Part shown: piece by piece, positions 13,453-52,491 of the stretch
Layout of the letters: each line of letters starts with the position of its first letter
Position numbering within the stretch: the stretch's first letter is position 1
IMG/VR virus record: IMGVR_UViG_3300037258_001214
Location: 30,376-94,375 of that record
DNA length: 64,000 bases
Origin: a virus
Reading direction: 5' to 3' (one strand)
Position numbers and translations under genes: made by a program
The notes under the pieces: generated by a model
What the model saw: the letters and a program-made list of their open reading frames with translations, nothing else
Told to the model about the DNA's origin: nothing
Database searches by the model: none

Positions 13453-13490
13453 GCCGCTACGGCCAGGGGCGCCACTTCGCCCGCAACGGG
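13453..13490 (+). promoter_or_regulatory. Late double-hairpin element, copy 1 (before lysin)
   Basis: GCC-GCTAC-GGC ... CCC-GCAAC-GGG. Confidence 0.6.
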
Positions 13491-13517
13491 ACCGCACGAC
13501 CCGCATGCGAGGCGAGG

Positions 13518-14306
13518 ATGACCGTTCCCGGCAAGCTCCAGGTCGACACAGGCACCGGCCACGTCACCGGCCCGGCGAGGATCTCGTTCAGCTCGCCGTT
13601 CCCGGTGCCGAACGGGGGCTGGGGCAGCGGCGCCATGATGGGCGTCGTCATGCACACCGAGGTGGGCGACAACCCGGGCACCGAGTCATGGTTCGAGAAC
13701 CCGGCCGCTCAGGCCTCAGCGGACTTCGCGGTCGCCCAGGACGGCTCGATCGTCCAGATGGGCCCGGTCGGCAAGGGATGGGTGGCGTGGGCCGAAGCGA
13801 ACGGCAACCGCGCGTGGTACTCGATCGAGCACGCCGATGACGGCCACCCGGCCAACCCGCTGACCGCCGCGCAGATCACCGCGAGCGCACAGCTCGTCGA
13901 GGTGCTGGCGCGGTTCGCCGGCTTCCCGCTCCAGGTCAGCGACAGCACCAGCGTGAAGGGCTACGGCTGGCACGGGATGGGCGGCCAGGCGTGGGGCGGA
14001 CACCTGAACTGCCCCGGCGACGTCCGCAAGGCCCAGCGGCCCCAGATCATCGCGCTGGCCATGGCCATCCGCCAGGGCGGGCAGCCCGCGGCGTCCGTCC
14101 GCGAGTGGACCACGGCGGGCATGTCGTCGCTGGCCCAGCTGGCACAGCAGGAGCACACCGAGCCTTCGACGATCCTGCGCCTGACCGCCCAGCACGCGCC
14201 CGTCTACCCGGGCCCGGTGGCCGCGTGGCTCAACGCCGTGTTCGCGGGCACCGCCGACCCGTCCAAGCCGATGCCAGCCGGACTGGCCCTGTACCTGCCC
14301 GCCTGA
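13518..14306 (+). CDS. Endolysin, Amidase_2 N-acetylmuramoyl-L-alanine amidase with LysM-like C-terminus
   Basis: VMHTE, ASADF, SIEH, GWH, NCPG Zn-amidase motifs. Confidence 0.9.
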   Translation: MTVPGKLQVDTGTGHVTGPARISFSSPFPVPNGGWGSGAMMGVVMHTEVGDNPGTESWFENPAAQASADFAVAQDGSIVQMGPVGKGWVAWAEANGNRAWYSIEHADDGHPANPLTAAQITASAQLVEVLARFAGFPLQVSDSTSVKGYGWHGMGGQAWGGHLNCPGDVRKAQRPQIIALAMAIRQGGQPAASVREWTTAGMSSLAQLAQQEHTEPSTILRLTAQHAPVYPGPVAAWLNAVFAGTADPSKPMPAGLALYLPA

Positions 14307-14316
14307 GGAGCCCGAG

Positions 14317-14547
14317 ATGACCTCACCTGTTGCCCCCGTCGAGACCAAGACCGCCGCCGCAGCGTCCGTGAGCACCGTCACAGGCGTGATCACGTGGATG
14401 CTGGTCAGCTACATCCCGGCCTGGCACGCGGGCATCCCCGCGCCGCTGGCGACCTTCCTGCCGTTCATCGTCGCCAGCGTCCTGGGAGCGGCTTCGGGCT
14501 GGCTGGCTCCGCACACGCCGCGCCCGGCCGTCCCGCCCGCGTCATGA
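14317..14547 (+). CDS. Holin
   Basis: Two TM helices, VETKTAAA and GWLAPHTPR motifs, adjacent to the lysin. Confidence 0.8.
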   Translation: MTSPVAPVETKTAAAASVSTVTGVITWMLVSYIPAWHAGIPAPLATFLPFIVASVLGAASGWLAPHTPRPAVPPAS

Positions 14548-14912
14548 CCCGCTGGGGTGCCTATGTCGAGCAGCGCCTTGGCGAGCTGGAGCGCGGCGAA
14601 GGCGACTATACCGAGCTGAAGCAGCCATCGGCGGCGACCGTGGCGCACGCTCGCAAGGTAGCCGCCGAGACGTTCCGCGACACCACGCCGACGCCTTCAG
14701 TGGTGCCCACGGCAGATGGCGGGATCGACTTCGCGTGGCACAAGAACGGCTACGACGTCGAGATCACCGTCACGGAGACCGAAGCGGACATCTGGGCCCG
14801 GCAGCGCGCTACCGGCGAGGAGTGGGCGAGCCCGCTTCCCGATCACGACCGGTGCTGCGTCCCTCGCGTCCTCGACGCGCTGGAGGCGACCGGGGTAGAA
14901 CGCACCGGCTGA
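14544..14912 (+). CDS. Hypothetical protein
   Basis: PSVVPTADGGIDFAW motif; ATGA overlap. Confidence 0.7.
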   Translation: MTRWGAYVEQRLGELERGEGDYTELKQPSAATVAHARKVAAETFRDTTPTPSVVPTADGGIDFAWHKNGYDVEITVTETEADIWARQRATGEEWASPLPDHDRCCVPRVLDALEATGVERTG

Positions 14913-14948
14913 CATCCGTACCATACTGACCAGCACCACCCTGTACCA

Positions 14949-14984
14949 GCGCCGCAACAGCGCCAGCGCAATCCCGGAACGGGA
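14949..14984 (+). promoter_or_regulatory. Late double-hairpin element, copy 2 (before terS)
   Basis: GCGCC-GCAAC-AGCGC ... TCCC-GGAAC-GGGA. Confidence 0.65.
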
Positions 14985-15070
14985 GATCCATTGGCACCAT
15001 CAATGGCTCCCGCACGGGGATGCCGCCGACGTCGCAGTGCGCGATTCCTCGCGTGCGCGCACGAGGGCAT

Positions 15071-15568
15071 ATGAGCGCCCCGCCTCTTACCGATGCCGAG
15101 CGCGCCAGGATCCGCGAACTCCACGCACAGGGAATGTCGGCGAGCGCGATCGGCCGGGAGATCGGCCGCAGTCAGGGTGCCGTCTCCAAGAACGCCGCAG
15201 CCATGGGACTGTCGTTCGACCGCGCCCAGACCAAGGCGGCCACCGGGGCGAACGTGGCCGACAGCGCGGCGCGGCGGGCTGAGACGTCGCGGCGGTTCCT
15301 GGAGAAGGCCAACGACCTGCTCGACCAGATGGACGGCCCGTTCGTGGCCTACAACTTCGGCGGCAAGGAGAACAGCTACAACGAGCACGAGTTCGAGAAG
15401 CCGCCCGTTGACGCGCTGCGGACGCTGGTGCAGGCCGCGGCGACCGCGTTCGACAGGCATATGGCCCAGGACCGGCACGACGCGGCCGGCGAGGAGGGCG
15501 GCTCGGCTGTCGACCAGTGGCTGCGGATGATGATGGGCGGCAACTCCCCGGCCGGCGGGACCCCCTGA
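15071..15568 (+). CDS. Terminase small subunit (N-terminal HTH)
   Basis: HTH GMSASAIGREIGRSQGAVSK; coupled to terL. Confidence 0.8.
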   Translation: MSAPPLTDAERARIRELHAQGMSASAIGREIGRSQGAVSKNAAAMGLSFDRAQTKAATGANVADSAARRAETSRRFLEKANDLLDQMDGPFVAYNFGGKENSYNEHEFEKPPVDALRTLVQAAATAFDRHMAQDRHDAAGEEGGSAVDQWLRMMMGGNSPAGGTP

Positions 15569-16890
15569 TGCTGGCCGCGCTGCAGGCCAAGGCACTCGAC
15601 GCGGTGCCGCTGTGCACGCACCGGTTCAACATCTTCGAGGGCAGCGTCCGGTCGTCGAAGACGGTGACGTCGCTGCTGCCGTGGCTGGATTTCGTGCGGC
15701 ACGGCCCGAAGGGGCCCCTGCTGATGGTGGGGAAGACCGGGGACACGCTGAAGCGGAACACGATCGACCCGCTGACGGAGATGCTGGGCGCGTCCCGGTG
15801 CGCGCACAACATCGGGACGCGGGAGCTGAAGCTGCTCGGCCGCACGCTGTACCTGGCGTCGGCGAACGATGAGAAAGCGGCGGCGAAGATCGCGGGCCTG
15901 ACGCTGGCGGGGGCGTACGGGGATGAGCTGTCGACGTGGCCGGAGTCGTTCTTCCGGATGCTCGGGTCGCGGCTGTCGCTGCCGGGCGCGAGGATGTTCG
16001 GGACGACGAACCCGGACAACCCGATGCACTGGCTGAAAGCCGGCTATCTGGACCGGGCGAAAGTGCACCTTACCCAGGCCGGTGACGTGCTGGTCTCCGC
16101 TGACCCGGACGCGCTCGACCTGGCCAGGATGTCGTTCGTCCTGGCCGACAACCCGCACCTGCCGCCCGAGTACGTCGCCGCCCTGGCCGCGGAGTACACG
16201 GGCCTGTGGCACCGCAGGTACATCCTCGGCGAGTGGGTGATCGCCGAGGGCGCGGTGTATGACATGTTCGACCTGGCCCGGCATGTCGTCGGCGACTGCC
16301 CGGTGATCAAGCGGTGGATCTGCTGCTCGGTGGACTACGGGACGACGAACCCGTTCCATGCGCTGCTGATCGGCCTCGGCGTCGACAAGCGCTTGTACGT
16401 GGTCGCGGAGTGGCGGTGGGATTCGCGGAAGCGGCGCCAGCAGCTCAGCGACGCCCAGTACTCGGCGAAGCTCCGCGAGTGGCTGGCCAGCGTCCGGTAC
16501 CCGGGTTCGATGCTGCACGGGGTGACACCGGAGCGGATCATCGTGGACCCCTCGGCGGCGTCGTTCCGGGTGCAGCTGTTCCAGGACCGGATGCAGTCCA
16601 TGATGGCCGAGAACGAGGTGCTGGACGGGATCCGGCTGGTGTCGTCGCTGCTGTCGACGGGGCGGCTGCTGATCCACGAGTCGTGCACGGACCTCATCGG
16701 CGAGCTGCAGTCCTACAGCTGGGATGAGAAGGCGGCGGCTAAGGGGGAGGATGTGCCGATCAAGAAGAATGACCACGGCGTGGACGCTCTGCGCTATGGC
16801 ATTTACACGCCGCGCAGCGTGTGGCGGAACCTGATCATCCCGTCCGAGGCGCCCCCGAACTACCAGGATCATTTCGGGGTGCCGCTGTAG
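15568..16890 (+). CDS. terL: Terminase large subunit (PBSX-like)
   Basis: EGSVRSSKT, YGDE, TTNPD, VDYGTTNP, VDPSA, NDHGVDALRY. Confidence 0.96.
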   Translation: MLAALQAKALDAVPLCTHRFNIFEGSVRSSKTVTSLLPWLDFVRHGPKGPLLMVGKTGDTLKRNTIDPLTEMLGASRCAHNIGTRELKLLGRTLYLASANDEKAAAKIAGLTLAGAYGDELSTWPESFFRMLGSRLSLPGARMFGTTNPDNPMHWLKAGYLDRAKVHLTQAGDVLVSADPDALDLARMSFVLADNPHLPPEYVAALAAEYTGLWHRRYILGEWVIAEGAVYDMFDLARHVVGDCPVIKRWICCSVDYGTTNPFHALLIGLGVDKRLYVVAEWRWDSRKRRQQLSDAQYSAKLREWLASVRYPGSMLHGVTPERIIVDPSAASFRVQLFQDRMQSMMAENEVLDGIRLVSSLLSTGRLLIHESCTDLIGELQSYSWDEKAAAKGEDVPIKKNDHGVDALRYGIYTPRSVWRNLIIPSEAPPNYQDHFGVPL

Positions 16891-16898
16891 CGAGCGGC

Positions 16899-16943
16899 TT
16901 GACGGGTGGTAGCACAACCGGCTAGGGTGGTACTACCACCTAG
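16899..16943 (+). promoter_or_regulatory. Moron promoter with palindromic operator
   Basis: TTGACG-18 nt-TAGGGT overlapped by GGTGGTA-C-TACCACC. Confidence 0.65.
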
Positions 16944-16956
16944 AGGGGAGCCCGAG

Positions 16957-17268
16957 ATGCACCGCATAGCAGTCAAGATGCCAGCGGCGGCCGACCACGC
17001 CCCGCTGTCCGTGCTGAACCGGACCGGACGGGGCATCCGCACCACGATCGTCTGCTCGTGCGAGTGGATGCCGGCCAAGGCGCCCGCCGCCGCGTCCACG
17101 ATGAACAACTCGCACATGGCGCACCGCCGCAAGCAGGGAATGCCCCGTGCGGACTACTCGGCCACCGTGTTCGGCGAAGGCCCGTGGATGGGCCTGACGT
17201 GGGATGAGTGGCACGACGCGCACGGCGACGAGAACGTGGACCCCTACACCGGGATGTCCCGTGCCTAA
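16957..17268 (+). CDS. Hypothetical protein
   Basis: GGGGAG RBS; CSCEW and H..H motifs. Confidence 0.7.
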   Translation: MHRIAVKMPAAADHAPLSVLNRTGRGIRTTIVCSCEWMPAKAPAAASTMNNSHMAHRRKQGMPRADYSATVFGEGPWMGLTWDEWHDAHGDENVDPYTGMSRA

Positions 17269-17506
17269 CCAGCATGCCACCAAGCCCAGGGCCGTCCGGT
17301 TGCCGGGCGGCCTTGAGGCGCGCGTGAAGGCAGCTGCGGAAGCGGACGGCGGGACCGTCAACGCCTTCATCGTCGCCGCGATCGAGGAGAAGCTGGAGCG
17401 GCGCGGTAGCACCACCCCGGCCGGCCGGGTAGCACCACCCGCTGTCACCTTCACTGCGCCGCTCGACAGCCCGGATGCCCGTCGCCGGACGGGAGGAACC
17501 AGGTGA
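17261..17506 (+). CDS. Ribbon-helix-helix (Arc/CopG-like) regulator
   Basis: RAVRLPGGLEARVKAAAEADGGTVNAFIVAAIEEKL. Confidence 0.8.
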   Translation: MPNQHATKPRAVRLPGGLEARVKAAAEADGGTVNAFIVAAIEEKLERRGSTTPAGRVAPPAVTFTAPLDSPDARRRTGGTR

Positions 17507-17848
17507 GCCCGTTCCGCAGTCGCCAGCAGCCGCCTCCGCGGCGGCAGCCGCATCCCGACGCGCGCATTGAGGCCGAGTTCCAGCGGATCATCTCGCTGCG
17601 GAAGGCCGTTGCCCGCAAAGAGGGACTCGCCGCGAAGGACCACGAGCAGATCACCGCCATGCGAGAGCAACTCGCGCAGCACCCGACATGGGACCGGGCT
17701 CCGAAGCTGGCGGCAGCAGGTCGATGCGCTCCTGGACGAAGTGGAGGAACTGGACGGCGACGTCACGAAGCTCCACGACGAGATCGCCGCGCGGATCGGC
17801 AAGATTGATGACGCCGACCTGGCGTGGCTGGAAAGCGGTCAGCCATGA
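17503..17848 (+). pseudogene. Coiled-coil protein with +1 frameshift near 17704 (or sequencing error)
   Basis: Removing one A at 17704-17705 joins ...WDRAP to SWRQQVDALLDEVEEL... Confidence 0.6.
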
Positions 17849-18048
17849 TCCCCGCCGAGCTGGACCAGATCCGGGACCGCCTCCGTCCGCACGGCCCGCA
17901 CGTCTGCGATGACCGCTGCACCTGCCCGGTTCACGGCACGCCGCTGATCTACTGGCCAGCGGGGGACGATCACGCCTGCCGGGACATCACCTGCAAGTAC
18001 GGACACGGTGGCGCGCTAGCGCCTGCAGCGGAACCTCCCGCCTCGTAA
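17845..18048 (+). CDS. Small Cys/His-rich protein
   Basis: CDDRCTCPVH...HAC...C..H. Confidence 0.65.
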   Translation: MIPAELDQIRDRLRPHGPHVCDDRCTCPVHGTPLIYWPAGDDHACRDITCKYGHGGALAPAAEPPAS

Positions 18049-18057
18049 GCTACAGCT

Positions 18058-18363
18058 ATGGCCGAACCGCGCGAGCTCATCATCACCGACGACGGGGAAG
18101 CGCTCTTCTCCGGCCATGTCGGCATGCGCGTCCAACTGCCAGCCCAGCAGCTCCGGTGCTCTCCTGACCTCGCCGCCGCGATCCGCGAGCTGGACGCCGC
18201 CGCCGAGCCGGGCCGGCCCTCTCCGTCGCTGCTGATCTTCGGTGCCAGCGAGATCATCGCGGACGAGTCGGTGCTGTCCGGCGACTGGCACCTGGAGCAG
18301 GCCGGCCGCGTGATCCAGACCGGACACCTGGATGCAGCCTCGCTAGACTCGGCCGCCTCGTAA
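18058..18363 (+). CDS. Hypothetical protein, probably leaderless
   Basis: TAAGCT 6 nt before the ATG; flanked by a 16-bp direct repeat. Confidence 0.7.
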   Translation: MAEPRELIITDDGEALFSGHVGMRVQLPAQQLRCSPDLAAAIRELDAAAEPGRPSPSLLIFGASEIIADESVLSGDWHLEQAGRVIQTGHLDAASLDSAAS

Positions 18364-18402
18364 GCTACGATTCACCCAGGACGCCTCAGCCGCGTCCGTC
18401 CC

Positions 18403-18437
18403 GCGCTGCAACAGCGCTCAGATGATCCCGCAACGGG
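18403..18437 (+). promoter_or_regulatory. Late double-hairpin element, copy 3 (before the portal unit)
   Basis: GCGCT-GCAAC-AGCGC ... CCC-GCAAC-GGG. Confidence 0.7.
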
Positions 18438-18455
18438 TGCAAGCCTCACAGGAGA

Positions 18456-18737
18456 TTGCGCCCCGTGCCGGAAACCTTGCCCGCGCCGCCTGATAACAGG
18501 CCGTACGTGCCGATGCACGAGCCCGGGCATGAGATCCGCACGCTATCCCTCGACGGCACCCGCAAGCACCGGTGGAAGCAGGTCGGCTGGCAGGGCCAGA
18601 CCGGCGCCATCTACGGCCTCGGCGAGAAGCCGCAGCTGCACGAGCCGGGATCGTTCTCGCCGCTCTACGTGATGGTCGATTCTGACTACGTAGAGCTTCC
18701 CTCTGAGCTTTCGAGGGGAGGTGATGCAGCGGAATGA
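18456..18737 (+). CDS. Hypothetical protein
   Basis: AGGAG RBS, coupled to the portal gene. Confidence 0.65.
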   Translation: MRPVPETLPAPPDNRPYVPMHEPGHEIRTLSLDGTRKHRWKQVGWQGQTGAIYGLGEKPQLHEPGSFSPLYVMVDSDYVELPSELSRGGDAAE

Positions 18738-20550: not shown

Positions 20551-20930
20551 TGGCAGATCACTATGACCCGGCGCAGGCGCGGGACAATCGCGGCGAGTGG
20601 ACCAGCGGCGCGGGCGCGGTGGCGAGGAACGTCACCGGGAGGGGCGGCGGCCGGAAGGCGGCAGGCCCCCCGAAGGTGAAGAACCCCGGCGGCCGGAACA
20701 TGTACGCGCGGGACGACACCCCCGAGTACCAGAAGCGCGAGGGCACCAAGCCGAACATCCACGTTCCGGAGCCGGCTCCGGCGTCGGCGCGGCGCGCCCC
20801 GGCGGGCAGCAGGACGGCCAAGCCCGCTAAGCCGGCCCGCCCGGCCCGGCCGCCGAAGGCCAGGTTCGCCTCGCACGGCACCGGCGCCGCGTCGCAGTCC
20901 GGCGGTCCCGGGCCGGTCATCCCGAAGTGA
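20550..20930 (+). CDS. Basic low-complexity protein with YDPAQARDNRGEWT motif
   Basis: Motif like those of phage head-associated proteins; coupled to the portal gene. Confidence 0.65.
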   Translation: MADHYDPAQARDNRGEWTSGAGAVARNVTGRGGGRKAAGPPKVKNPGGRNMYARDDTPEYQKREGTKPNIHVPEPAPASARRAPAGSRTAKPAKPARPARPPKARFASHGTGAASQSGGPGPVIPK

Positions 20931-20937
20931 GGCCGCC

Positions 20938-25842: not shown

Positions 25843-25860
25843 CCGCTATCTATACGATTT

Positions 25861-25882
25861 CGGCAACCGGGCCGCAACGGCC
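25861..25882 (+). promoter_or_regulatory. Late double-hairpin element, copy 4 (before scaffold)
   Basis: CG-GCAAC-CG, GGCC-GCAAC-GGCC; TACGAT at 25853. Confidence 0.6.
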
Positions 25883-25907
25883 GCCTAGCCCTGTAACAGG
25901 AGTACTC

Positions 25908-28126: not shown

Positions 28127-28436
28127 GCAGGCGGAGGACGCCTACCCCGTCGCCTACTGTGCTCCCGGCCGGCGCTTCGCCGCCGCGCTCACCCTGATGT
28201 TCAAGGGCGAGGAGGTCGCGCGGATCGTCGAGCACCCGTGGCTTGAGGGGACCGCGGGCGTCTACGTCGTGGCCGAAGATCGGCTGGACCTGACCAAGCT
28301 GCTCCCGGTCAGGTGCGAGGTCTCCGAGCCGTTGCCGTGGCGTGACCCCAACTGGGTGTACGGGGCGCTCGTGAACACGCCCATACGGGGCATCTGCCCC
28401 GCTGTAGGCGTAACGGGCATCTCGGCGTTACCATGA
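28116..28436 (+). CDS. Hypothetical protein
   Basis: Overlapping operon member. Confidence 0.55.
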   Translation: MAPEQAEDAYPVAYCAPGRRFAAALTLMFKGEEVARIVEHPWLEGTAGVYVVAEDRLDLTKLLPVRCEVSEPLPWRDPNWVYGALVNTPIRGICPAVGVTGISALP

Positions 28437-28495
28437 GCACGACGCACCCCGCGTCCGCGTACAGGCCGCCAGGCCTCGCGGCGGGGAGCGGTAGC

Positions 28496-28640
28496 CGCCG
28501 GAACGGCGAGCAGTCCGCCCGCAACGGGTAGCACACCTCACTTGAGCAGGAGCTACCTCTTGCACGCGGTACTCGCCTGAACGGCGGCTTTGCTTTACCC
28601 GGAATTGCCGTAACGGCATTTCAAATTCACCCGCAACGGG
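28496..28640 (+). promoter_or_regulatory. Late double-hairpin element, copies 5 and 6, in the major capsid leader
   Basis: CGCC-GGAAC-GGCG/GCCC-GCAAC-GGGT and TGCC-GTAAC-GGCA/CCC-GCAAC-GGG. Confidence 0.7.
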
Positions 28641-28674
28641 ATTCTCGCGAATTCCCTGAAGGGGTGAAATAGAC

Positions 28675-31359: not shown

Positions 31360-31989
31360 ATGTTCACCATCCCCTCGAACGCGAGCCCGGCATCCCCGGT
31401 GACCTACGAGTGGCTCCAGGACCTCATGGAGTCCCAGGCGCAGGAAGCCGTCGCCATCGCCGCGATCGCGGGAGGCTTCCCGGGCCCAGGCGCCAGCGGC
31501 TACCTCGGCTGGTCGGCCCCGGTGTGGCACGCGACCTCCACCGCGGCGCTGACGTCCACCGACATCTACGTGATCGCCGTCTACGTGCCGGTGGCCGGGA
31601 CCGCGACCTTCGTGGACGTGGACGCCACCACCGCGGGCACCGTCACCGTCGCCGACACCGGCCTTTACACCCTGGCCGGGACGAAGCTGGCATCCGCGGC
31701 GACCGCGCAGCTGACCACGAACTCCGCGGCGTGGGGCGCCGGGATCAACACGTGGCAGTACGTCACCCCGGTCGCCCTGGCCGCGGGCGTCTACTACGCG
31801 ACGATCGAGACCACCAGCTCGGGTGCGCCGTCGCTGGCGGCCAGCCCGGCGAGCCCGGTGATCAACTTCAACCTGCCGTCCAACGTCTACAACTACGCGA
31901 CGGACAGCACCGGCACCATCCCGTCCTCGATCACCCCGTCCGGCCTGACCGGCGTGGTGACCGCGCAGCCGTGGGTCGGCATCCGCTAA
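31360..31989 (+). CDS. Virion structural protein (beta-rich)
   Basis: AGGAG RBS; Thr/Ala/Gly-rich beta sandwich. Confidence 0.7.
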   Translation: MFTIPSNASPASPVTYEWLQDLMESQAQEAVAIAAIAGGFPGPGASGYLGWSAPVWHATSTAALTSTDIYVIAVYVPVAGTATFVDVDATTAGTVTVADTGLYTLAGTKLASAATAQLTTNSAAWGAGINTWQYVTPVALAAGVYYATIETTSSGAPSLAASPASPVINFNLPSNVYNYATDSTGTIPSSITPSGLTGVVTAQPWVGIR

Positions 31990-33395: not shown

Positions 33396-33557
33396 ATGAA
33401 GCGGGCATGCGCCGATGGCGACGAGCAGGACGCCTTCACCGGCTGGCGGCACGTGATGTCCTGGCAGCGCGGCGAGCTGCGGAAGATCAAGCGCCGGGCG
33501 GGCAAGCGGGAGCGGCGCGTGGCCAGGGCTGCTATCGAGCGGGGGCGTGGCGGGTGA
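33396..33557 (+). CDS. 53-aa basic phage protein (not in ORF track)
   Basis: MKRACADGDEQDAFTGWRHVMSWQRGELRKIKRRAGKRERR; GTGA overlap. Confidence 0.65.
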   Translation: MKRACADGDEQDAFTGWRHVMSWQRGELRKIKRRAGKRERRVARAAIERGRGG

Positions 33558-37378: not shown

Positions 37379-37419
37379 CCCGCAACGGCCGGGGCCAGCC
37401 GCCAATCGCCCGCAACGGG
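37379..37419 (+). promoter_or_regulatory. Late double-hairpin element, copy 7 (before neck genes)
   Basis: CC-GCAAC-GG ... CCC-GCAAC-GGG; TACGAT at 37325. Confidence 0.65.
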
Positions 37420-37452
37420 GAGCATCACCACTGCTACCCCGGAAGACGGGCC

Positions 37453-39896: not shown

Positions 39897-39933
39897 GCGC
39901 CGTAACGGCGCGCCAGCCAGATCCCGCAACGGG
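39897..39933 (+). promoter_or_regulatory. Late double-hairpin element, copy 8 (before tail tube)
   Basis: GCGCC-GTAAC-GGCGC ... CCC-GCAAC-GGG. Confidence 0.7.
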
Positions 39934-39972
39934 TGACCCGTAACCAAGCCACACCCCTTTGCGGGAGCATCC

Positions 39973-45623: not shown

Positions 45624-45940
45624 AAACGATAAAGCCCGGGGCGCTCGGCCGCCTCCGGTGGGCTATCCGGACGCGCCGCAAGCCGGCCTCGTTCGCAGGG
45701 CTGCTGCGGCTGTGGTGGGCGGACTTCATCCTTCACCCGTTCTTCGAGTGCGACGAGCGCTGCCAGGACTGCGGGCGCGCTTACGTGCTCTGGCACGCCC
45801 CGGGTGAGCTGTACGCCGAGGTGCACGGATCGGGCTTCGGGCTGCTGTGCCCGCGGTGCTTCGACCGGCAGGCCGAGGCGAAGGGCATCACGATCAGCTT
45901 CGAGGCGCGCGTGATGCGCAGGGAGGAAACTCATGGCTAG
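45614..45940 (+). CDS. Small Zn-finger moron
   Basis: CQDCG...W.AP..L...V...G.LCPRCF. Confidence 0.6.
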   Translation: MGLETIKPGALGRLRWAIRTRRKPASFAGLLRLWWADFILHPFFECDERCQDCGRAYVLWHAPGELYAEVHGSGFGLLCPRCFDRQAEAKGITISFEARVMRREETHG

Positions 45941-47015: not shown

Positions 47016-49013
47016 ATGGCCACATTCCAGGCGCTCGGCTACCCACTCTGGTGTGATGGCCAAGAGTGGACGTCGCTGCTGTCGCGCCAGCTCGGCGGCG
47101 GCGTGGCCGTCTGGGACTCCAACGCCTCGCAGACCGCGGTCAACCCGCTCGGCGGGGTGATGGGCGGGACCGGCCACCCGCTGCAGGTCGCCCAGCAGGC
47201 CAGCCCGGACCTAAGCGTGCTGGTCAACGCCGGGTACGTGGCCGTGCCGCACCAGACGGCAGGGCACGGGGTCTACCTGTTCGGGCTGCAGGCCCAGTCG
47301 ACGCTGACCATCGCCAGCAACGGGGCGGGCAGCAGCAGGCTTGACCTGATCGTGGCCCGCGTCCACGACCTCGGGAGCGGCTCCAGCTCCTGCGACATCG
47401 AGGTGGTGCAGGGGACCGCGGGAAGCGGGCAGCCCGCCACCCCGTCAGCGGCGCTCCTGCTGGCCGTCGTCACCGTGGCCCCGAGCGCTACCACGATCAC
47501 CACGTCGAACATCGCCGACCAACGGACGTTCACCGTGGCGCCGGGCGGCGTGCTGCCCGCCACGACCTCGGCCGCCCCGCCGCTGTCCCCCGGCCAGGTG
47601 GCCTGGAACACGTCTCTGTCGCTGCTGGAGCGGCTGGCCAGCCCGATCACGCTCACCCAGACCTGGACCGAGGCCGGGACCTACGAGTGGATGTTCCCCG
47701 CTGGCGTGCCCACCTCGGAATGGGAGGCGACCGGTGCCGGGTCGGCCGGCGGCGGCTCCCCTGACAACAACGGGGCCGGAGCAGCTGGCGGCGGCGAATG
47801 GGCAGCCGACACGATCACCGGCACGCCGGGCGTCACAACGCTCACGATCGTCGTGGGCGCCGGGGGAGAGGCCTCGCCGGCAGGCGTGAACACCCCCGGT
47901 ACCGGGACGGCCTCGACCGTCGCAGGCGGCTCGGTGGAGCTCGTGGCGAACCCGGGCCAGCCGGGGACTGCGGACGGTGACGTCGGGGCCGGAGGGACCG
48001 GCAGCACGAACGCCCGGCACAACCATGGCGGCCAGGGCGGGGCGACGCTGCCCGCCGGCGAGGCGGGCGGCGGCGGAGGAGGGTCCGGCGGTCCCGGGTC
48101 GCCCGGCCAGGACGGCGCCACCGCGGCTGGGGCCGAGATCGGCGACGAGACAGGCCAGGGCGGCCAGGGCGCCGCTGCGGTCCCGGGCGGCGGCCCGGGC
48201 GGCCCGGGCGGCAGCTTCGGCGGTCCTGGCTTCGCGCCTGCCACGGGCCCGGGCGGCGGCGGAGGCGGTGCCGGCGGGTCGTCCAGCCCCAGCGGCCCGG
48301 GCCTGGACGGCCAGGTGACCGCCACGTGGGTCGTGCAGCCCGCCGCGCTCACCCCGGTGTTCTCCACCGACTCTGCTGAGGACGACCTGGCCGTCGTGGA
48401 CACCTCCACGGGCGGGGCGGGCAGTTCCGGGCTCACCCCGGCAGCGGGGTCCTCCTACGGCTGGGGGATCGGCTACGGGTCGACGACGTACACCGGGTTC
48501 TTCGGGTTCTTCAGCGGCTTCGACGCGGACGGCAGCGTCGTGCCGCAGATCCAGGTGGAGTTCGACGCGGACGGCCAGACCGATTTCCAGCTCGACGTCA
48601 AATGGGGCCTGGCCGTGCCCGAGGCCGCGGTGGACGCCGCCTCGCCGTCGATCGCTCATGGCCAGTGCCGGATCATCCTGCAGCTTGACGGCGCGGTCCT
48701 GGACACCGTGTACCTGTGCTGCTCAGCGTCGGGTGGGGTCACCAAGCCGGGCGACGGCGGGTGCTTCACCTACTACACCTCGGCCCAGAACGGCACGACT
48801 CCCTCAGCAGGGGTGCACACGGCGACGCTGGCCGTGGAGACGCTGAACACCCTGTCGGGGCAGCTCTCGGGCGCGCACGTCGGGGACCTGGCGTCGGTGG
48901 GCACCAGCCCGCACCCGTTCGGCGGGTCGGCACTGCCGACGGGCTTCACGAACGCGCTGACGGCGGAGAACTGCTCGCTGCGGGTCGCCGGGATCGGGGC
49001 GAGCGCGATATGA
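47016..49013 (+). CDS. Minor tail protein with Gly-rich domain, paralogue of 45933
   Basis: Shared N- and C-terminal motifs (RLDLIVA, GTTP.AG.HT) with a central Gly-rich insert. Confidence 0.8.
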   Translation: MATFQALGYPLWCDGQEWTSLLSRQLGGGVAVWDSNASQTAVNPLGGVMGGTGHPLQVAQQASPDLSVLVNAGYVAVPHQTAGHGVYLFGLQAQSTLTIASNGAGSSRLDLIVARVHDLGSGSSSCDIEVVQGTAGSGQPATPSAALLLAVVTVAPSATTITTSNIADQRTFTVAPGGVLPATTSAAPPLSPGQVAWNTSLSLLERLASPITLTQTWTEAGTYEWMFPAGVPTSEWEATGAGSAGGGSPDNNGAGAAGGGEWAADTITGTPGVTTLTIVVGAGGEASPAGVNTPGTGTASTVAGGSVELVANPGQPGTADGDVGAGGTGSTNARHNHGGQGGATLPAGEAGGGGGGSGGPGSPGQDGATAAGAEIGDETGQGGQGAAAVPGGGPGGPGGSFGGPGFAPATGPGGGGGGAGGSSSPSGPGLDGQVTATWVVQPAALTPVFSTDSAEDDLAVVDTSTGGAGSSGLTPAAGSSYGWGIGYGSTTYTGFFGFFSGFDADGSVVPQIQVEFDADGQTDFQLDVKWGLAVPEAAVDAASPSIAHGQCRIILQLDGAVLDTVYLCCSASGGVTKPGDGGCFTYYTSAQNGTTPSAGVHTATLAVETLNTLSGQLSGAHVGDLASVGTSPHPFGGSALPTGFTNALTAENCSLRVAGIGASAI

Positions 49014-50230
49014 CCCTGACCCAGGCGCAGATCCAGCAGTACTACGCCTCAGGCGGCCCGTTCGCTTCGGCCCGGAAATCTGTGTACAGATACCTGACTT
49101 CCAACGTGCTCAGCGGCGCCATCATGGGGGACTGGCTGCCGATGGAGCCTCAGTCGTTCTCCCGCGTCATCAACGGGGCCGGCACCTTCACCGGGGCGCT
49201 GGACCTGATACCGAGCGACCCGGTACGGAACGCGGCCAACCTCGCCGCCATCACCCCCCGCAAGGCGGTCCTGTGGGTGCTGCAGGACGGCACGCCGGTC
49301 TGGAACGGGATCCTGTGGGACTGGATCCCCCAGTCCGTCCTCCAGCAGCAGCTGCAGGTGCAGGCATCCACGGTGGACTCGATCCTCGCCAAGCGGGTCA
49401 TCGAGGCAGACCTCGTGTTCACCGGGGCGGACATCTTCGACATGGCCCGGGGGATCATCCAGTACGCCCTGTCGAAGTCACCGAACGGGCAGGTCGCGGG
49501 CATCACCTACACGCAGGGCACCTGCGGGGTGACGGACTCGCTGACGTTCGACGGTTCCCAGAACCAGATGGCCTCCGACGCGCTCGGCACGCTGGTGACG
49601 ACCTACGGGATCGAGTACGCGTTCCGGCCCTATATGGACGCCGGCGGCAACCTGCGGACCAGCGTCGACCTCGGCTACCCGGCGCTCGGCCAGCCTTACC
49701 CGGCCTCCGGCCTGGCCTACAGCTTCCCCGGCAACCTGCTGGACTACCGGTTCACCGCAACCGGCTCGTCCGGCGCAAACCGGGTCATCGCCACCGCCCA
49801 GAACTCGAACGGCTCCGGATCCGCCGACCCCAGCACGGCGCTGGCCGGATCCGCGATCGACTCGGCGGACATCGGGAACGGCTACCCGCTGACCGAGGAG
49901 GCCGTGTCAGCGACCGGGGTCACGCTCACCACCGATTCCCAGCTCGACGACTACGCCGCCGGGGTCCTGCCGAGCGTGACGGCAACTCAGCTGGCCCCGC
50001 TGGTGGTGCTCGGCAACGGGCAGTATCCGCCGGTCAACGTGACGCAGCTGGGCTCCTACGCTTCCGTGGCGTTCACCAGCGCCGAGCACCCCGCCGGCCC
50101 GGCCGGCGAGCCAGGGTTCACCGGAACGGGCCGGGTCGTGTCCTGGACCGTCTACCCGCCCACATCCCAGCAGGCGGAATATGCCTGGATCCAGCTGGGC
50201 GCCATGCCGTTCGAGGGGAGCACCCTGTGA
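49010..50230 (+). CDS. Baseplate hub/Tal-like minor tail protein
   Basis: FSR.ING.G.F.G.L, DG.PVW.G..W, GYP.LG, FPGNL..Y. Confidence 0.8.
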   Translation: MTLTQAQIQQYYASGGPFASARKSVYRYLTSNVLSGAIMGDWLPMEPQSFSRVINGAGTFTGALDLIPSDPVRNAANLAAITPRKAVLWVLQDGTPVWNGILWDWIPQSVLQQQLQVQASTVDSILAKRVIEADLVFTGADIFDMARGIIQYALSKSPNGQVAGITYTQGTCGVTDSLTFDGSQNQMASDALGTLVTTYGIEYAFRPYMDAGGNLRTSVDLGYPALGQPYPASGLAYSFPGNLLDYRFTATGSSGANRVIATAQNSNGSGSADPSTALAGSAIDSADIGNGYPLTEEAVSATGVTLTTDSQLDDYAAGVLPSVTATQLAPLVVLGNGQYPPVNVTQLGSYASVAFTSAEHPAGPAGEPGFTGTGRVVSWTVYPPTSQQAEYAWIQLGAMPFEGSTL

Positions 50231-50889
50231 AGTTCCCCAACCAGCTGCAGAACCGCGCCGCGGCGACCATCGCGCAGACGGCGAGGCTGGTCACCACCGC
50301 CCACCAGCGGCTCAACACGATCGGGTCCCAGGTCTCGTCGCTGACTCCCGGCGACTGGGAAGCCCTCACCCTGGACGCCGGCTGGTCGAACGTCTCCGGC
50401 TACATCCCCGCGCAGGTCAGGATCCTCCAGAACGGGCTGGCCCAGCTCGTCGGCCACATCCAGGGCGGCACGACGACCAACGGGACGACGATCGCCACCC
50501 TCGGTGCCGGGTTCTACAACCCGGAGCACGCCCACTCGTTCACCGCGAACGTCCTGGCCGGGGCCGCCGCGGTATCGGTGGCGGGCACGATCAGCGGCAC
50601 GACCGACAACAACGGCCTGACCGACTCCAGCACGGGAGGGCAATCGGGCATCGTCGTGGCCGGCAATCCGACCAGCAGCGCCCATGAGCACTTCCCGGGA
50701 ACCTACGACGTCAACAACGCGGCCCACCAGCACACCAACCTGTCCGGCGGCCAGGTGCCCGCAACGCCGGTCAACTACAACACGGTGATCCTGTCGCTCA
50801 GCACGAGCGGGGTCCTCACCATCCAGAACTGCCCGGCCGCGGCGACGCAGATCAGCTTCAACGAGAACCTGCCGCTCGTGACCTCGTAA
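50227..50889 (+). CDS. Minor tail protein
   Basis: Short coiled coil, then W..LTL.AGW.N. Confidence 0.75.
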   Translation: MKFPNQLQNRAAATIAQTARLVTTAHQRLNTIGSQVSSLTPGDWEALTLDAGWSNVSGYIPAQVRILQNGLAQLVGHIQGGTTTNGTTIATLGAGFYNPEHAHSFTANVLAGAAAVSVAGTISGTTDNNGLTDSSTGGQSGIVVAGNPTSSAHEHFPGTYDVNNAAHQHTNLSGGQVPATPVNYNTVILSLSTSGVLTIQNCPAAATQISFNENLPLVTS

Positions 50890-50919
50890 GCCTCCCGGCT
50901 GTACCTTTAGATCAGCAGA

Positions 50920-50957
50920 GCGCCGCAACGGCCGCGCAGGAACGACCCGGAACGGGT
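50920..50957 (+). promoter_or_regulatory. Late double-hairpin element, copy 9
   Basis: GCC-GCAAC-GGC ... ACCC-GGAAC-GGGT. Confidence 0.7.
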
Positions 50958-51002
50958 GCCGACGATAACCGCACCCCCCCACCGGGAAAGGATCCCGCGC
51001 AC

Positions 51003-51587
51003 ATGCCCAGCGACACCATCATCAACTGGTCCGCCCACGCCCGGATCGCCAAGTACTCACCGGACCAGGTCGCGTACGCGGTCCGCACGCTCGGCTACGA
51101 GCCGCCCGGCCACAAGCTCTCCCTGATCTTCAAGGAGCCCGAGGACGGGATCACCGAGGAGCCCGGCAACCTGCTCGTCACCGTGGGCCTGAACCTGCTC
51201 ACCGAGCTGATCGAGGGCGGCGGCGGGACGCCGTTCGCGCACGCGGACGCGATCATCGGCGTCGGGGCGGGCACCACCACGGCGGTCATCGGCGACACGG
51301 CGCTCACCGACGACAACACCGCGAACGCCTACTACCAGCAGGCGGACGCGTCGTTCCCGACGCAGTCCAACGGGGTGATCACGGCCCAGGCCACGTTCGC
51401 GAGCGGCAACGCCAACTTCGCGTGGCAGGAGTGGTGCCTGGCCACCGGCTCAGGCGGCATCACCGCAGGTGACCACCTGTCTGCGGTCGCTACGTCGGTG
51501 ATCATGCTCAATCATAAAGTAGCCAGCTTGGGCACCAAGGCTTCGGGCGCAAGTTGGGTTTTTACGGCAACTTGCACCCTTAGTTGA
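51003..51587 (+). CDS. Tail/collar structural protein
   Basis: NLLV..G, IGVG.G......DT.L, ANFAW.E, LNHKV..LGTK. Confidence 0.75.
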   Translation: MPSDTIINWSAHARIAKYSPDQVAYAVRTLGYEPPGHKLSLIFKEPEDGITEEPGNLLVTVGLNLLTELIEGGGGTPFAHADAIIGVGAGTTTAVIGDTALTDDNTANAYYQQADASFPTQSNGVITAQATFASGNANFAWQEWCLATGSGGITAGDHLSAVATSVIMLNHKVASLGTKASGASWVFTATCTLS

Positions 51588-51608
51588 TCTTGAAAAACTT
51601 GTAGTACA

Positions 51609-52442
51609 GTGTCGTCCATGACGACCGCTCACAAGTGGCCCGAGCTCTACGATCCCGAGTGGATGCATGAGCACTACACCGTGCAGAAGATGACCATGTA
51701 CGACATTGCGGAGTTGGTCGGATGCAATGACGGCACGGTTTACTACGCCATGCGCAAGATCGGCCTCCAGGCGCGGCCGAACACCCAGCGGCTGGCGAAG
51801 TTCAAGCGCAAGCGGTGCCGGGCATGCCGCGAGATGTTCCAGCCGACGGCGACCTGTCATCTGTACTGCTCGGACCGGTGCCAGCCGCAGGTCGCGCGGA
51901 TGCGGCACACCTGCGCGACCTGCGGGACGGAGTTCGAGGCCAGGGTGCCGCGCTGGCGGTATTACTCCCAGAAGTTCTGCTCGGCAGAGCATCGGCAGGA
52001 ATACCTTCAGAACGACCCGGGCCGGCTGCGGCGCAGAGTCGCCGACGGCGGCTATATCCACATCCGCGTCGGCGTCGGGTATCCGGGAGCATTTGCCAGC
52101 GGCTACATGCCCGAGCATCGCTGGGTCATGGAGCAACGGCTAGGGCGCAGCCTCCTGCCGGCCGAGGAAGTCCACCACCGGAACGGGCACCGGGACGATA
52201 ATGACCGCTGCCCTGTGTGCCCGTTCAGCGTGGCGCCCGCCAAAGTCCGGGGTGACCGCCTGCACTGCACCGCATGCGGCTGGGTGAGCGCCAGCCAGCC
52301 CAACCTGGAGCTATGGACCCGATCGCAGCCGCGAGGCCAGCGCGTCGAGGACAAGATTGAGTGGGCGCTCGGGTTCCTGGCCGAGTACGGGCGCGTCAGC
52401 TTCCAGGCGTCCCTGCCGGCCGAAGCCATCGCAGCGTCCTAG
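51609..52442 (+). CDS. HNH homing endonuclease with HTH and Zn fingers
   Basis: EHRWVMEQRLGR.L...EEVHHRNG.RDDN...NLELW. Confidence 0.88.
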   Translation: MSSMTTAHKWPELYDPEWMHEHYTVQKMTMYDIAELVGCNDGTVYYAMRKIGLQARPNTQRLAKFKRKRCRACREMFQPTATCHLYCSDRCQPQVARMRHTCATCGTEFEARVPRWRYYSQKFCSAEHRQEYLQNDPGRLRRRVADGGYIHIRVGVGYPGAFASGYMPEHRWVMEQRLGRSLLPAEEVHHRNGHRDDNDRCPVCPFSVAPAKVRGDRLHCTACGWVSASQPNLELWTRSQPRGQRVEDKIEWALGFLAEYGRVSFQASLPAEAIAAS

Positions 52443-52452
52443 CATTGCCTTA

Positions 52453-52491
52453 GCGCCGCAACGGCGCACCGCAGGACGACCCGGAACGGGT
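52453..52491 (+). promoter_or_regulatory. Late double-hairpin element, copy 10
   Basis: GCGCC-GCAAC-GGCGC ... ACCC-GGAAC-GGGT. Confidence 0.7.

Follow-up and report, generated by a model that had tools for sequence, protein, structure and literature searches.

Tandem-hairpin leaders and start-associated repeats

ANTAR proteins bind leaders with a dual stem-loop, the ANTAR-target RNAs (PMC8164766). Like the element described here, these RNAs consist of two short tandem hairpins with conserved loop positions (linker 2–25 nt), and another fold competes with the second hairpin. However, their loops are hexaloops with A1 and G4, whereas those of the element are G-N-A-A-N pentaloops; the element gave no Rfam 15 match even at permissive thresholds, its targets are phage virion genes, and the provirus carries no ANTAR protein. 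Start-Associated Sequences (SAS/ESAS) are known from Cluster K mycobacteriophages and Cluster EF Microbacterium phages (PMC3203893, PMC7302621). These are also lineage-wide repeats of a single orientation that lie immediately upstream of the start codons of certain genes only, with an inverted repeat extending some copies upstream, and a role in translation initiation is suspected. A fixed sequence of 13 bp (GGGATAGGAGCCC or GGGAAAGGACCCC) defines SAS, which is limited to one cluster, while the element is defined by structure and loops and spans unrelated phage lineages.

The HK022 put sites likewise form two adjacent nascent-RNA stem-loops just past promoters and need no dedicated phage protein, but they are about 70 nt long with conserved bulges, number two per genome, have no sequence or loop similarity to the element and are not linked to a ribosome-binding site. 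BoxB of lambda and P22, the target of N protein, shares with the element a short stem, a GNRA-like pentaloop with one extra base and a promoter-proximal location in a phage leader, and in the lambda N leader it is combined with a larger helix masking the Shine-Dalgarno sequence (SD). The nut sites are two single copies in early operons, whereas the element occurs as ten tandem copies before late genes, its extra loop base is the fifth, it overlaps the SD in most phages, and no N homologue was found. The parallels with put and boxB are architectural resemblances only. In CsrA/RsmA dual sites, two hairpin-loop sites, one of them at the SD (CsrA), are bridged at variable spacing, and in the Mu Com-mom operator Com binds an upstream hairpin and remodels another that hides the SD. 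This likeness is an analogy of logic only; the CsrA loop motif (GGA) differs from that of the element, and the provirus has no CsrA or Com homologue.

An oriented element in the late region of the provirus

The window (the whole stretch of 64,000 nt analyzed here) is part of a 94-kb actinobacterial prophage record and carries ten copies of what is probably an undescribed two-hairpin RNA (Table 1). The first-pass annotation had proposed an undescribed element and placed all ten copies between genes on the sense strand. Every copy reads as it described, at the coordinates given, on the + strand and between genes, and the literature searched contains no description of a tandem GNAAC-loop motif, in line with the Rfam result. 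CCGSAACGG has 21 matches against 3.42 expected (sd 1.9; none of 100 shuffles reached 21), 20 of them on the + strand. Taken alone, the core CGNAACG shows no enrichment (41 vs. 44 expected), so the signal lies in the stem-flanked form. When the whole 94-kb record was scanned for stems of at least 3 bp around GNAAC, every tandem pair was found between genes, on the + strand and in the late region. A covariance model (R1), which had been suggested as a check, gave the ten copies 29.7–44.6 bits and everything else on both strands of the 64 kb at most 13.8; the ten copies were its training set, and the scores therefore measure separation from background rather than independent detection.

Table 1. 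Positions in the window of the element copies and of associated features (scores are for model R1).
Feature	Position	Strand	Context or sequence	Bits
Copy 1	13453..13490	+	before endolysin gene (start 13518)	34.4
Copy 1, hairpin 1	13453-13463	+	GCC-GCUAC-GGC; loop GCUAC
Copy 1, hairpin 2	13480-13490	+	CCC-GCAAC-GGG
Copy 2	14949..14984	+	before terS-like HTH gene (start 15020) and terL	39.9
Copy 2, hairpin 1	14949-14963	+	C.A mismatch in stem 1
Copy 2, hairpin 2	14972-14984	+	UCCC-GGAAC-GGGA
Copy 3	18403..18437	+	before 90-aa ORF (18465) and portal gene	43.7
Copy 3, hairpin 1		+	GCGCU-GCAAC-AGCGC
Copy 3, hairpin 2	18427-18437	+
Copy 4	25859..25901	+	before scaffold-like gene (start 25908)	36.1
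Copy 4, three hairpins	25859-25871, 25870-25882, 25889-25901	+
Copy 5	28496..28529	+	first of two modules, major-capsid leader	39.1
6-codon ORF	TTG 28560 to TGA 28580	+	within 28560..28597
Terminator-like hairpin	28573-28587		CGCC-UGAAC-GGCG, then U-rich tail
Copy 6	28606..28641	+	directly before major capsid gene (TTG 28675)	37.6
Copy 7	37379..37420	+	before neck/tail-completion gene (37453)	29.7
Copy 8	39897..39934	+	before tail-tube-like gene (39973); no TANNNT upstream	44.6
Copy 9	50920..50957	+	before 194-aa gene (51003)	35.6
Copy 10	52453..52491	+	before 15-codon ORF (52526-52573)	42.1
TANNNT, first of eight	13432..13437	+	TACGCT
TANNNT, copies 2-4	14919, 18366, 25853	+	TACCAT, TACGAT, TACGAT
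TANNNT, later copies	28429, 37325, 50902, 52440	+	TACCAT, TACGAT, TACCTT, TAGCAT
Arg-rich small ORFs	7261-7536, 10028-10489, 33396-33557
HTH_23/sigma-r4-like protein	4862-5191	-	small protein

The ten copies precede the first gene of lysis and virion gene units, and nine are 18–45 nt upstream of a start codon. The neck/tail-completion gene is the first + strand gene past a minus-strand block. The earlier statement that the element heads almost every late unit is nevertheless too strong; for example, the + strand unit from 31360, also past a minus-strand block, has neither element nor TANNNT. Copies 5 and 10 directly precede only very short ORFs. Downstream of copy 5 there is just the 6-codon ORF, the stop of which is inside a terminator-like hairpin, while the 15-codon ORF of copy 10 is followed by DNA with minus-strand codon bias and then by a 747-aa + strand gene (53034).

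The core of the element is two short hairpins (sometimes one or three) with stems that are free to vary in sequence and GNRA-like pentaloops, which are GCAAC, GGAAC or GUAAC in this provirus and GCAAC, GCAAG or GCAAU in other phages. The spacer is 4–12 nt, C-rich, G-poor and unstructured, and the loop-to-loop distance ranges from 11 to 36 nt. The two-stem architecture first proposed fits most copies but not copy 4, which has three hairpins; the first two overlap and therefore cannot both form, and the 3' arm of the last (CCU-GUAAC-AGG) plus AG constitutes the SD. As the annotation had noticed, stem 1 changes yet keeps pairing: all six pairs show double changes, and its covariation score is 0.33 compared to 0.127 in shuffles (0/500 reach 0.33). 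Hairpin 2 is almost invariant, a CCC-GNAAC-GGG box with CCU/AGG variants. A hairpin of copy 3 shows a C-G to U-A swap between orthologous loci of relatives. Within stems, G.U pairs are not enriched over A.C, a count confounded by A/C-rich flanks. Covarying stems, fixed loops, variable loop distance, the C-G to U-A swap and an orientation matched to the gene are best read as RNA hairpins rather than as a duplex-DNA site.

The annotation had also placed a -10-like box before most copies, and this is borne out: TANNNT occurs within 60 nt upstream of seven copies and, with the box at 28429, within 70 nt of eight of the ten, the copies being 2–66 nt downstream of it. In the background it is found in 40 of 1066 sixty-nt windows (4%) and before 2 of 51 other late genes. 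The box of copy 3 is invariant across four orthologous loci. The overall interpretation is supported as regards a structure-conserving sense-strand element tied to -10-like boxes, but its option of a hairpin late promoter is not supported: in relatives and in copy 4 the SD is the 3' arm of the last hairpin, 5–9 nt before the ATG, so the element is inside the mRNA and is not a promoter firing downstream of itself. A scan of nearly all of the record's 139 gene calls detected neither a phage RNA polymerase nor a full sigma factor.

Occurrence in other actinophages

Many unrelated actinophages, among them the cultured Streptomyces phages phiSASD1, Dubu and Kromp, carry the same element before scaffold and small-terminase genes, mostly in one or two copies. 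It is always oriented like the gene it precedes, also where that gene is on the minus strand (G001, G005 and L010). Hairpin 2 commonly runs into GGGAG or GGAGG 5–9 nt before the scaffold or terS ATG (G003, G004, G005, Dubu, Kromp, phiSASD1 and dozens of IMG/VR contigs), and in this common form, shared by most actinophages and copy 4, the CCC of hairpin 2 pairs with the GGG of the SD GGGAG. Hairpin 1 was also tested independently: among matches to GCAAC-N14-30-CCCGCAACGGG, a stem of at least 4 bp flanks the first loop in 15%, compared with 3.1% of controls, and among matches to CCCGCAACGGGAG-N4-10-ATG an upstream GNAAC hairpin is present in 24 of 112 (1 of 305 control windows). Hairpin-1 loops in the latter set were GCAAC (22), GCAAG (15) and GCAAU (8), and in 45 of 47 unselected loops the sequence was GCAA, with none GNGA or UNCG, a dominance far narrower than stability alone requires. 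The element is phage-restricted: five whole actinobacterial genomes gave 0–2 model matches each, and of the contexts checked, the two new to the search comprised a scaffold-like leader and a toxin-antitoxin pair.

A CUCCC-GCAAC-GGGAG hairpin covers the SD of a holin gene with a dual start in a phage lineage that is unrelated and has about 60% G+C.

Competing folds and possible modes of action

In the predicted minimum-energy fold of nine of the ten window copies, hairpin 1 is kept while the hairpin-2 box pairs downstream, an arrangement calculated to be 6–12 kcal/mol more stable than the local hairpin 2; orthologues are predicted to take the same alternative fold with different partner sequences. 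Of 23 leaders, 21 have a duplex between box and downstream sequence that is stronger than in shuffles (Wilcoxon p = 1e-5), and the accessibility of the ribosome-binding region is 0.30 for element-bearing genes compared with 0.41 for others (p = 0.02). Fold predictions carry little evidential weight for RNA of 70% G+C. Forcing hairpin 2 in silico exposed the SD region in copies 1, 2, 3, 5 (slightly) and 8 but not in copies 6, 7, 9 and 10, and the predicted effect of fold choice on SD exposure is thus inconsistent among copies. Polarity would differ too, since in the common form hairpin 2 would hide the SD, as opposed to the form local to this provirus. In silico removal of the 5' arm of hairpin 1 left SD exposure unchanged, so a simple translational-coupling model is unsupported.

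We favor, tentatively and with a probability of roughly 0.4, a leader-RNA switch at the translation start, with the GNRA-like loops read by a factor. The element would be a cis-acting module governing expression where translation of a unit's first gene begins, and in the lineage of this provirus it has spread to ten sites. The CCCGNAACGGG box of nine copies is predicted to alternate between a local hairpin and a longer helix with sequence next to the ribosome-binding site. A bivalent factor, perhaps a component of the host or a small, rapidly evolving protein of the phage, would recognize the two identical loops and fix one of the two folds; this would set ribosome access, and translation-coupled transcript protection would then set the expression of the whole unit. 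The data show the structure, position, orientation, conservation and competing pairing of the element; the existence and identity of the factor and the on/off direction of switching are what we infer. No binding factor was found: no non-structural protein family is common to the eight element-bearing genomes and absent from phiC31 and AbbeyMikolon, and the scanned gene calls of the provirus contain no ANTAR, CsrA, NusG or RNA-polymerase domains. The element and the putative promoters of this provirus track one-to-one, which also suits a role at the level of transcription and counts against the leader switch.

The element might instead act without a factor in mRNA stability and processing, although we regard this as rather unlikely. 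The upstream message would have hairpin 1 as its 3' cap, the C-rich single-stranded spacer would be cut (e.g., by RNase E), and hairpin 2, or a 5'-terminal hairpin at the transcription start, would protect the message that follows against 5'-end-dependent decay, raising scaffold, capsid and tail-tube mRNA above that of neighboring genes; the loops would merely help short hairpins to fold fast and hold. Consistent with this are the unstructured, G-poor spacer, the location of the element in many phages between a low-need (protease) and a high-need (scaffold, capsid) gene, the predicted transcription start about 7 nt past TANNNT, which falls at or near the first hairpin base in copies 3, 9 and 10, the failure to find a shared phage protein, and the use of a GCAAC hairpin over the holin SD in the unrelated lineage, where the loop may simply be a good cap. 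Stability alone leaves unexplained the near-restriction of unselected loops to GCAA, the retention of a fifth loop base, a near-invariant hairpin 2 with a conserved competing partner near the SD, and the presence of the element in the terS leader at the start of an operon.

Two further readings operate on transcription. A put- or nut-like signal, in which nascent tandem hairpins modify RNA polymerase, either alone (as HK022 put) or via an N-like arginine-rich protein (as boxB), so that terminators of late units are read through, appears improbable. Two stem-loops just past putative -10 boxes in 8 of 10 copies, at about one per unit, would suit it, as would the single copy heading the late operon before terS in simple phages, the Arg-rich small ORFs, the terminator-like hairpin between copies 5 and 6, and the pentaloop on a 4–8 bp stem, which we take to resemble lambda/P22 boxB. 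However, intrinsic terminators in 13–33 kb are not above chance (4 vs. 6.0 expected), the mid-operon copy 40 nt before scaffold has no terminator in view, SD overlap and ribosome-binding-site pairing play no part in put/nut function, and neither an Rfam 15 match nor an N homologue was detectable. The idea that CGNAACG direct repeats are double-stranded sites for a late activator or repressor, on the model of oriented stoperators or an ECF-type -35 (GGAAC/GCAAC), is very improbable. The copies are oriented, intergenic and adjoin -10-like boxes, the loop sequence is that of the ECF -35 core, and the provirus encodes WhiB, GntR and XRE-type regulators and a small HTH_23/sigma-r4-like protein, but the flanks covary as stems instead of staying conserved, box-to-box spacing varies from 11 to 36 bp, neither box has a conserved -10 at 16–17 bp downstream, the scanned gene calls include neither a full sigma factor nor a phage RNA polymerase, and in most phages the box holds the SD of the next gene directly past the previous stop codon.

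Given that the same element is spread across unrelated actinophage lineages, it probably serves them as a common point of control over virion protein production.

Tandem hairpins of the late region

The 94,375-bp provirus record, of which the window takes up bases 30376–94375, has a G+C content of about 70%, and its siphovirus-type late region occupies the plus strand between 13 and 58 kb of the window, broken up by unrelated genes and minus-strand blocks. A megablast search of the INPHARED collection retrieved no close phage, and the nearest cultured capsid is that of phiSASD1 (42% identity). All ten copies of the tandem hairpin reported in the first-pass annotation were recovered as described, along with the reported strand bias: the motif CCGSAACGG occurs 21 times (3.4 expected), 20 of them on the plus strand. 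The unflanked core CGNAACG is not enriched, which identifies the stem-flanked form as the selected one. A stem-aware scan of the whole record placed every tandem pair in an intergenic position on the plus strand of the late region, in line with the intergenic placement proposed. Scores from a covariance model trained on 54 instances were 29.7–44.6 bits for the ten copies, while the best other score in the 64 kb, both strands included, was 13.8 bits; since the ten belong to the training set, these values demonstrate separation rather than independent detection. Hairpin 2 lies 18–45 nt from the start codon of the next ORF. None of the 20 element hairpins is followed by the U tract of an intrinsic terminator, and a terminator-like scan flagged only one separate hairpin (see table).

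The loops are 5 nt long, G-N-A-A-(C/G/U), with the G and both A residues invariant in the element alignment (A4). GCAA accounts for 45 of 47 unselected loops, the third position is never G, and the fifth base is always present. A repertoire this narrow speaks for specific recognition of the loops over hairpin stability alone. Stems are 3–8 bp, and although the folding program closes the G-C pair and predicts a triloop, a GNRA-like fold of the pentaloop is plausible. A T-box-like AAC specifier, or anticodon-loop mimicry, was rejected, as the record contains no tRNA genes and the loop misfits positions 33 and 37 of an anticodon loop. The 16S rRNA stretch CCCGCAACGAGCGCAACCC bears some likeness to the element; it pairs differently in 16S, and the idea of a link was dropped.

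The -10-like boxes of the first-pass annotation were also found, with TANNNT no more than 60 nt upstream of seven copies and an eighth at 28429. This hexamer is present in 4% of all 60-nt windows and at 2 of 51 other late genes, and in late-region gaps of at least 60 nt it almost exclusively accompanies the element. The eight putative promoter boxes (TACGAT, three; TACCAT, two; TACGCT, TACCTT and TAGCAT, one each) lie 2–66 nt upstream of their copies. The claim that the element heads almost every late unit goes too far: the plus-strand unit starting at 31360, for example, lacks both the element and TANNNT. Copies 3 and 5 are each preceded by an additional G+C-rich hairpin that is conserved among orthologous loci; should TANNNT be the -10 box, the one at copy 3 would lie at the extreme 5' end of the transcript. 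A scan for consensus sigma-70 promoters and terminators was uninformative at 70% G+C.

Features of the provirus and of other element-bearing records (positions are those of the window unless another record or locus is named)
Feature	Position	Strand	Remarks
110-aa protein	4862–5191	-	HTH_23 match, weaker sigma-70 region 4 match
ORF of the same size	5194–5523		paralogue-like, no match
Endolysin	13518	+	
HTH terS-like gene	15020	+	
terL	15568	+	
Extra hairpin, copy 3	18366–18402		GGACGCC...GGCGUCC, between -10-like box and hairpin 1
Portal	19303	+	
Scaffold-like gene	25908	+	
Extra hairpin, copy 5	28445–28490		CCCCGCG...CGCGGCGGGG, between -10-like box and hairpin 1
6-codon ORF, TTG...TGA, with hairpin and tail	28560–28597		capsid leader, between copies 5 and 6
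Separate terminator-like hairpin	28573–28587		
Major capsid	28675	+	
Minor head protein	33641	+	
Neck	37453	+	
Tail-tube-like gene	39973	+	
Tape measure	41353	+	minor tail proteins also in late region
ORFs 3' of copy 10	52504–53004, 53225–53632	-	
747-aa gene	53034	+	
RtcB RNA ligase	L181:3780–4991	-	record bases upstream of the window
Single hairpin	L181:7002–7035	-	CCGCC-GCAAC-GGCGG
Three GGAAC-loop hairpins	L185:1470–1580		Streptosporangiaceae MAG
Degenerate pair	G001:31640–31800 (L054)	-	CCC-GCAAA-GGG and GCC-GAAAC-GGC, before portal
CUCCC-GCAAC-GGGAG loci	L204:11930–11962; L196, L203, L218, L231		about 10 more in IMG/VR
G001, 127 kb			element before scaffold and before capsid
G003			element before scaffold
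G004, G005			element before terS and between protease and scaffold
Kromp	4898–4945		protease-scaffold gap, 32.6 bits; also before terS
Dubu	4539–4587		
phiSASD1			three GCAAC hairpins before scaffold gp26

Distribution among actinophages

Pattern scans for related actinobacterial prophages, a check proposed in the first-pass annotation, recovered the element from 20 IMG/VR contigs at first and later from well over 100 others. Its contexts were read as prophage-like in Allonocardiopsis and a Streptosporangiaceae genome, and pattern matches were obtained in Nonomuraea, Micromonospora and Kribbella. Whole IMG/VR records (G001, G003–G005) carry one to three sites each, the downstream genes being identified with PHROGs; G001 has the structural module of the provirus, with about 31–51% identity across the virion proteins in common. 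The covariance model also matched three cultured Streptomyces phages, Kromp, Dubu and phiSASD1, while phiC31 and AbbeyMikolon have no element. Five whole actinobacterial genomes gave 0–2 matches each, where 150 candidates were scored per genome from a first look that yielded more than 10,000. Matches in IMG/VR contigs of 55–59% G+C (L005, L008, L009, L013, L014, L019, L020 and L023, and record G002) lie inside scaffold coding sequence, at codons for A-G-T-A or P-G-T-G, and were excluded as a single-lineage coincidence.

The typical layout in other phages is a protease stop codon (C-terminal ..LLRRYGYI), hairpin 1 with a 5–8 bp stem (loops GCAAC, 22; GCAAG, 15; GCAAU, 8), a spacer of 4–12 nt (41% C, 14% G), CCCGCAACGGGAG, 5–9 nt and ATG. 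In most phages the 3' arm of hairpin 2 is itself the Shine-Dalgarno (SD) sequence, which places the element inside the mRNA and excludes a promoter firing downstream of it. The hairpin late promoter that had been suggested, and equally one of the N4 type with a phage-encoded polymerase, is contradicted by this placement, and a scan of nearly all of the record's 139 gene calls found no polymerase domain. Copy 4, before the scaffold gene, keeps the common layout (CCU-GUAAC-AGG-AG seven nt before ATG), as do its orthologues. The site before scaffold appears ancestral, the other nine having been added in the provirus lineage. Copies 2–6 and 8, for which an orthologous locus was recovered, have stayed in the same place in relatives with proteins of only 50–92% identity. 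They are old, individually maintained sites rather than the product of recent mobile spread. Stop-codon read-through from protease into scaffold was rejected because the reading frame is inconsistent among instances.

Related hairpins occur in other settings. A single hairpin on locus L181 directly precedes the SD and ATG of a left-arm gene, so single copies also exist outside the late region, co-oriented with the gene. The only non-virion context seen is a toxin-antitoxin locus (L185), where three hairpins lie between putative antitoxin and RelE/ParE-like toxin genes, the third box being complementary to sequence just before the toxin start codon. In an unrelated lineage of about 60% G+C, an intrinsic terminator is followed by CUCCC-GCAAC-GGGAG covering the SD of a membrane protein of about 107 aa with a dual start (MPNMPEK or MAHMPEK); by analogy, this looks like a holin/antiholin start selector of the lambda S 'sdi' type with the same GCAAC loop. 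The degenerate pair before the G001 portal gene is preceded by an A/C-rich box, CTGACCAGCACCACCCTG, found also before copy 2 and its orthologues, which may be an additional conserved leader motif.

Pairing, competing folds and leader ORFs

Stem 1 had been described as varying in sequence while keeping its pairing, and in the 54-sequence alignment all six hairpin-1 pairs were indeed changed on both sides (for example, CG 26, GC 10 and UA 3 at one pair, and CG 14 and GC 14 at another). The covariation score was 0.33 versus 0.127 for shuffled alignments (0 of 500 shuffles reached 0.33), and the signal was lost when the partner column was slid; as the instances had been picked for at least three inner pairs, only the outer hairpin-1 pairs are unbiased. 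Two tests are free of this selection. Where GCAAC lies 14–30 nt upstream of CCCGCAACGGG, it is flanked by a stem of at least 4 bp in 15% of IMG/VR matches versus 3.1% of controls, and a GNAAC hairpin with such a stem precedes CCCGCAACGGGAG-N4-10-ATG in 24 of 112 distinct matches versus 1 of 305 control windows. A copy-3 hairpin shows a C-G to U-A swap between orthologous loci. Hairpin 2 hardly departs from CCC-GNAAC-GGG: four instances have CCU/AGG and two have GCC/GGC. The loops are 11–36 nt apart, and the orientation of the element is always that of the downstream gene, on either record strand. Counts of G.U versus A.C, tried as a means of telling the RNA strand, were uninformative in the A/C-rich flanks.

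In nine of the ten window leaders, the predicted minimum-energy fold keeps hairpin 1 and pairs the hairpin-2 box with downstream sequence beside the SD or start codon, at a predicted 6–12 kcal/mol more stable than the local-hairpin state. Copy 10 gives a clear example, in which CCCGGAACGG pairs with CCGUUCCGGG, and copy 8 another, CCCGCAA with UUGCGGG. All copy-3 orthologues have a helix from the box GGG to the start codon, with differing partner sequences, and all five copy-5 orthologues have GGGUAG...CUACCC at differing distances. In 21 of 23 leaders (p = 1e-5) the duplex of box and downstream sequence is stronger than in shuffles; many of these leaders are related and hence not independent. 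The CCU/AGG variants indicate that local pairing is also selected, so both folds seem to have a role, a layout typical of a switch. Forcing the folds had mixed predicted effects on SD exposure among copies, and the ribosome-binding regions of element genes are modestly less accessible (0.30 vs 0.41, p = 0.02). Translational coupling via release of the hairpin-1 3' arm was rejected, the predicted SD exposure being unchanged.

Copies 5 and 10 have only very short ORFs downstream, of 6 and 15 codons, with good SDs. The stop codon of the 6-codon ORF sits in a terminator-like hairpin (CGCC-UGAAC-GGCG), which has a U-rich tail and lies immediately ahead of copy 6 and the capsid gene; hairpin and tail both recur in a relative (L010). 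This suggests, but does not prove, leader-peptide attenuation ahead of the major capsid gene. Past copy 10, the G+C of codon positions favours two minus-strand ORFs over those of the plus strand, and a copy-10 transcript would then be antisense to them before the 747-aa gene.

Candidate factors, rival readings and significance

Clustering with blastp and phmmer (5, then 10 genomes) found no non-structural family shared by eight element-bearing genomes and absent from two without it. Pfam searches of nearly all of the record's 139 gene calls detected no ANTAR, CsrA, NusG or polymerase domains and no RNA-binding regulator; matches included WhiB, GntR, XRE-type HTH, a small HTH_23/sigma-r4-like protein, RtcB, an Rv2179c-like exoribonuclease, ERF and helicases. 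Small Arg-rich ORFs exist in the provirus, and nothing ties them to the element. The partner would therefore be a conserved component of the host or else a small phage protein that evolves fast; within the provirus, the leading candidates are the ORFs at 10028–10489, 10491–10781 and 33396–33557 and WhiB at 7261–7536. The HTH_23 protein (110 aa) adjoins its paralogue-like ORF, beside the XRE-TPR gene. The full-length RtcB (Pfam E = 2e-109) and the 3'-5' exoribonuclease domain, found among the left-arm or early-region proteins, are unusual phage cargo for RNA repair and turnover, and may serve in counter-defence.

No Rfam 15 family reached its gathering score in the window, consistent with the novelty first proposed, and there was no match at E ≤ 5 for the elements of loci L001–L004 (copies 5–7, 9 and 10) or at E ≤ 1 for Dubu, Kromp and phiSASD1. 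This is a genuine, conserved element for which neither Rfam nor the literature searched has a description. Of the known systems, lambda boxB, the SAS/ESAS repeats and ANTAR-target RNAs come closest. Lambda boxB, a stem of roughly 5 bp with a GNRA-like pentaloop, may have a similar loop type. The actinophage SAS/ESAS repeats show the same genomic behaviour and no sequence relation; they conserve a 13-bp sequence, whereas the element conserves loop and pairing, and no GGGATAGGAGCCC-like sequence occurs at the ribosome-binding sites of the ten leaders. ANTAR-target RNAs share the architecture of two tandem stem-loops (linker 2–25 nt, versus about 4–20 nt in the 54 instances of A4), but their loops are hexanucleotides with A first and G fourth (PMC8164766), unlike the 5-nt element loop, and no curated covariance model matched.

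The reading we favor, at a probability of about 0.4, is a leader-RNA switch at the translation start, with GNRA-like loops read by a bivalent factor. The hairpins could instead act as punctuation for mRNA stability or processing, which is possible though rather unlikely; the absence of a shared protein family would suit it, and the narrow loop repertoire speaks for recognition beyond stability. Antitermination of the HK022 put or lambda nut kind seems improbable. At eight of the ten copies the putative TANNNT boxes would make the element a promoter-proximal stem-loop pair, as put is; terminator-like sites are not enriched. A site read as duplex DNA is at odds with the hairpin-1 covariation, and we consider it very improbable; an ECF-type promoter was rejected, with box spacing too variable and no conserved CGT-type -10 at 16–17 nt after either box. 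What confidence remains falls to none of these four.

A fuller version of the leader-RNA switch is offered tentatively, and we regard it as doubtful in its entirety. It would be a post-transcriptional switch for late genes, common to many actinophage lineages, in which tandem hairpins at the ribosome-binding sites of scaffold and terminase genes are recognised through their boxB-like G-N-A-A-N pentaloops by a bivalent RNA-binding factor of host or phage origin. The provirus lineage would have placed copies of this switch behind some ten -10-only promoters, turning the whole lysis and virion programme into one RNA-operated regulon; two of the copies would control very small leader ORFs, one of these ORFs overlapping a terminator-like hairpin.

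Little is understood of the way in which actinophages set the timing and amount of virion-protein synthesis. Repeated start-associated motifs have been noted in several actinophage clusters, and to our knowledge the mechanism is known for none. The element is small, defined by structure, statistically solid and common to unrelated lineages, and it is present in the cultured, tractable Streptomyces phages phiSASD1, Dubu and Kromp, which makes the question directly testable. If a factor reads the loops, the two would form a novel RNA-protein pair controlling genes in high-G+C bacteria, and the element a compact, portable regulatory part; if none does, it would still be a clear example of a conserved signal punctuating the mRNA between protease and scaffold.
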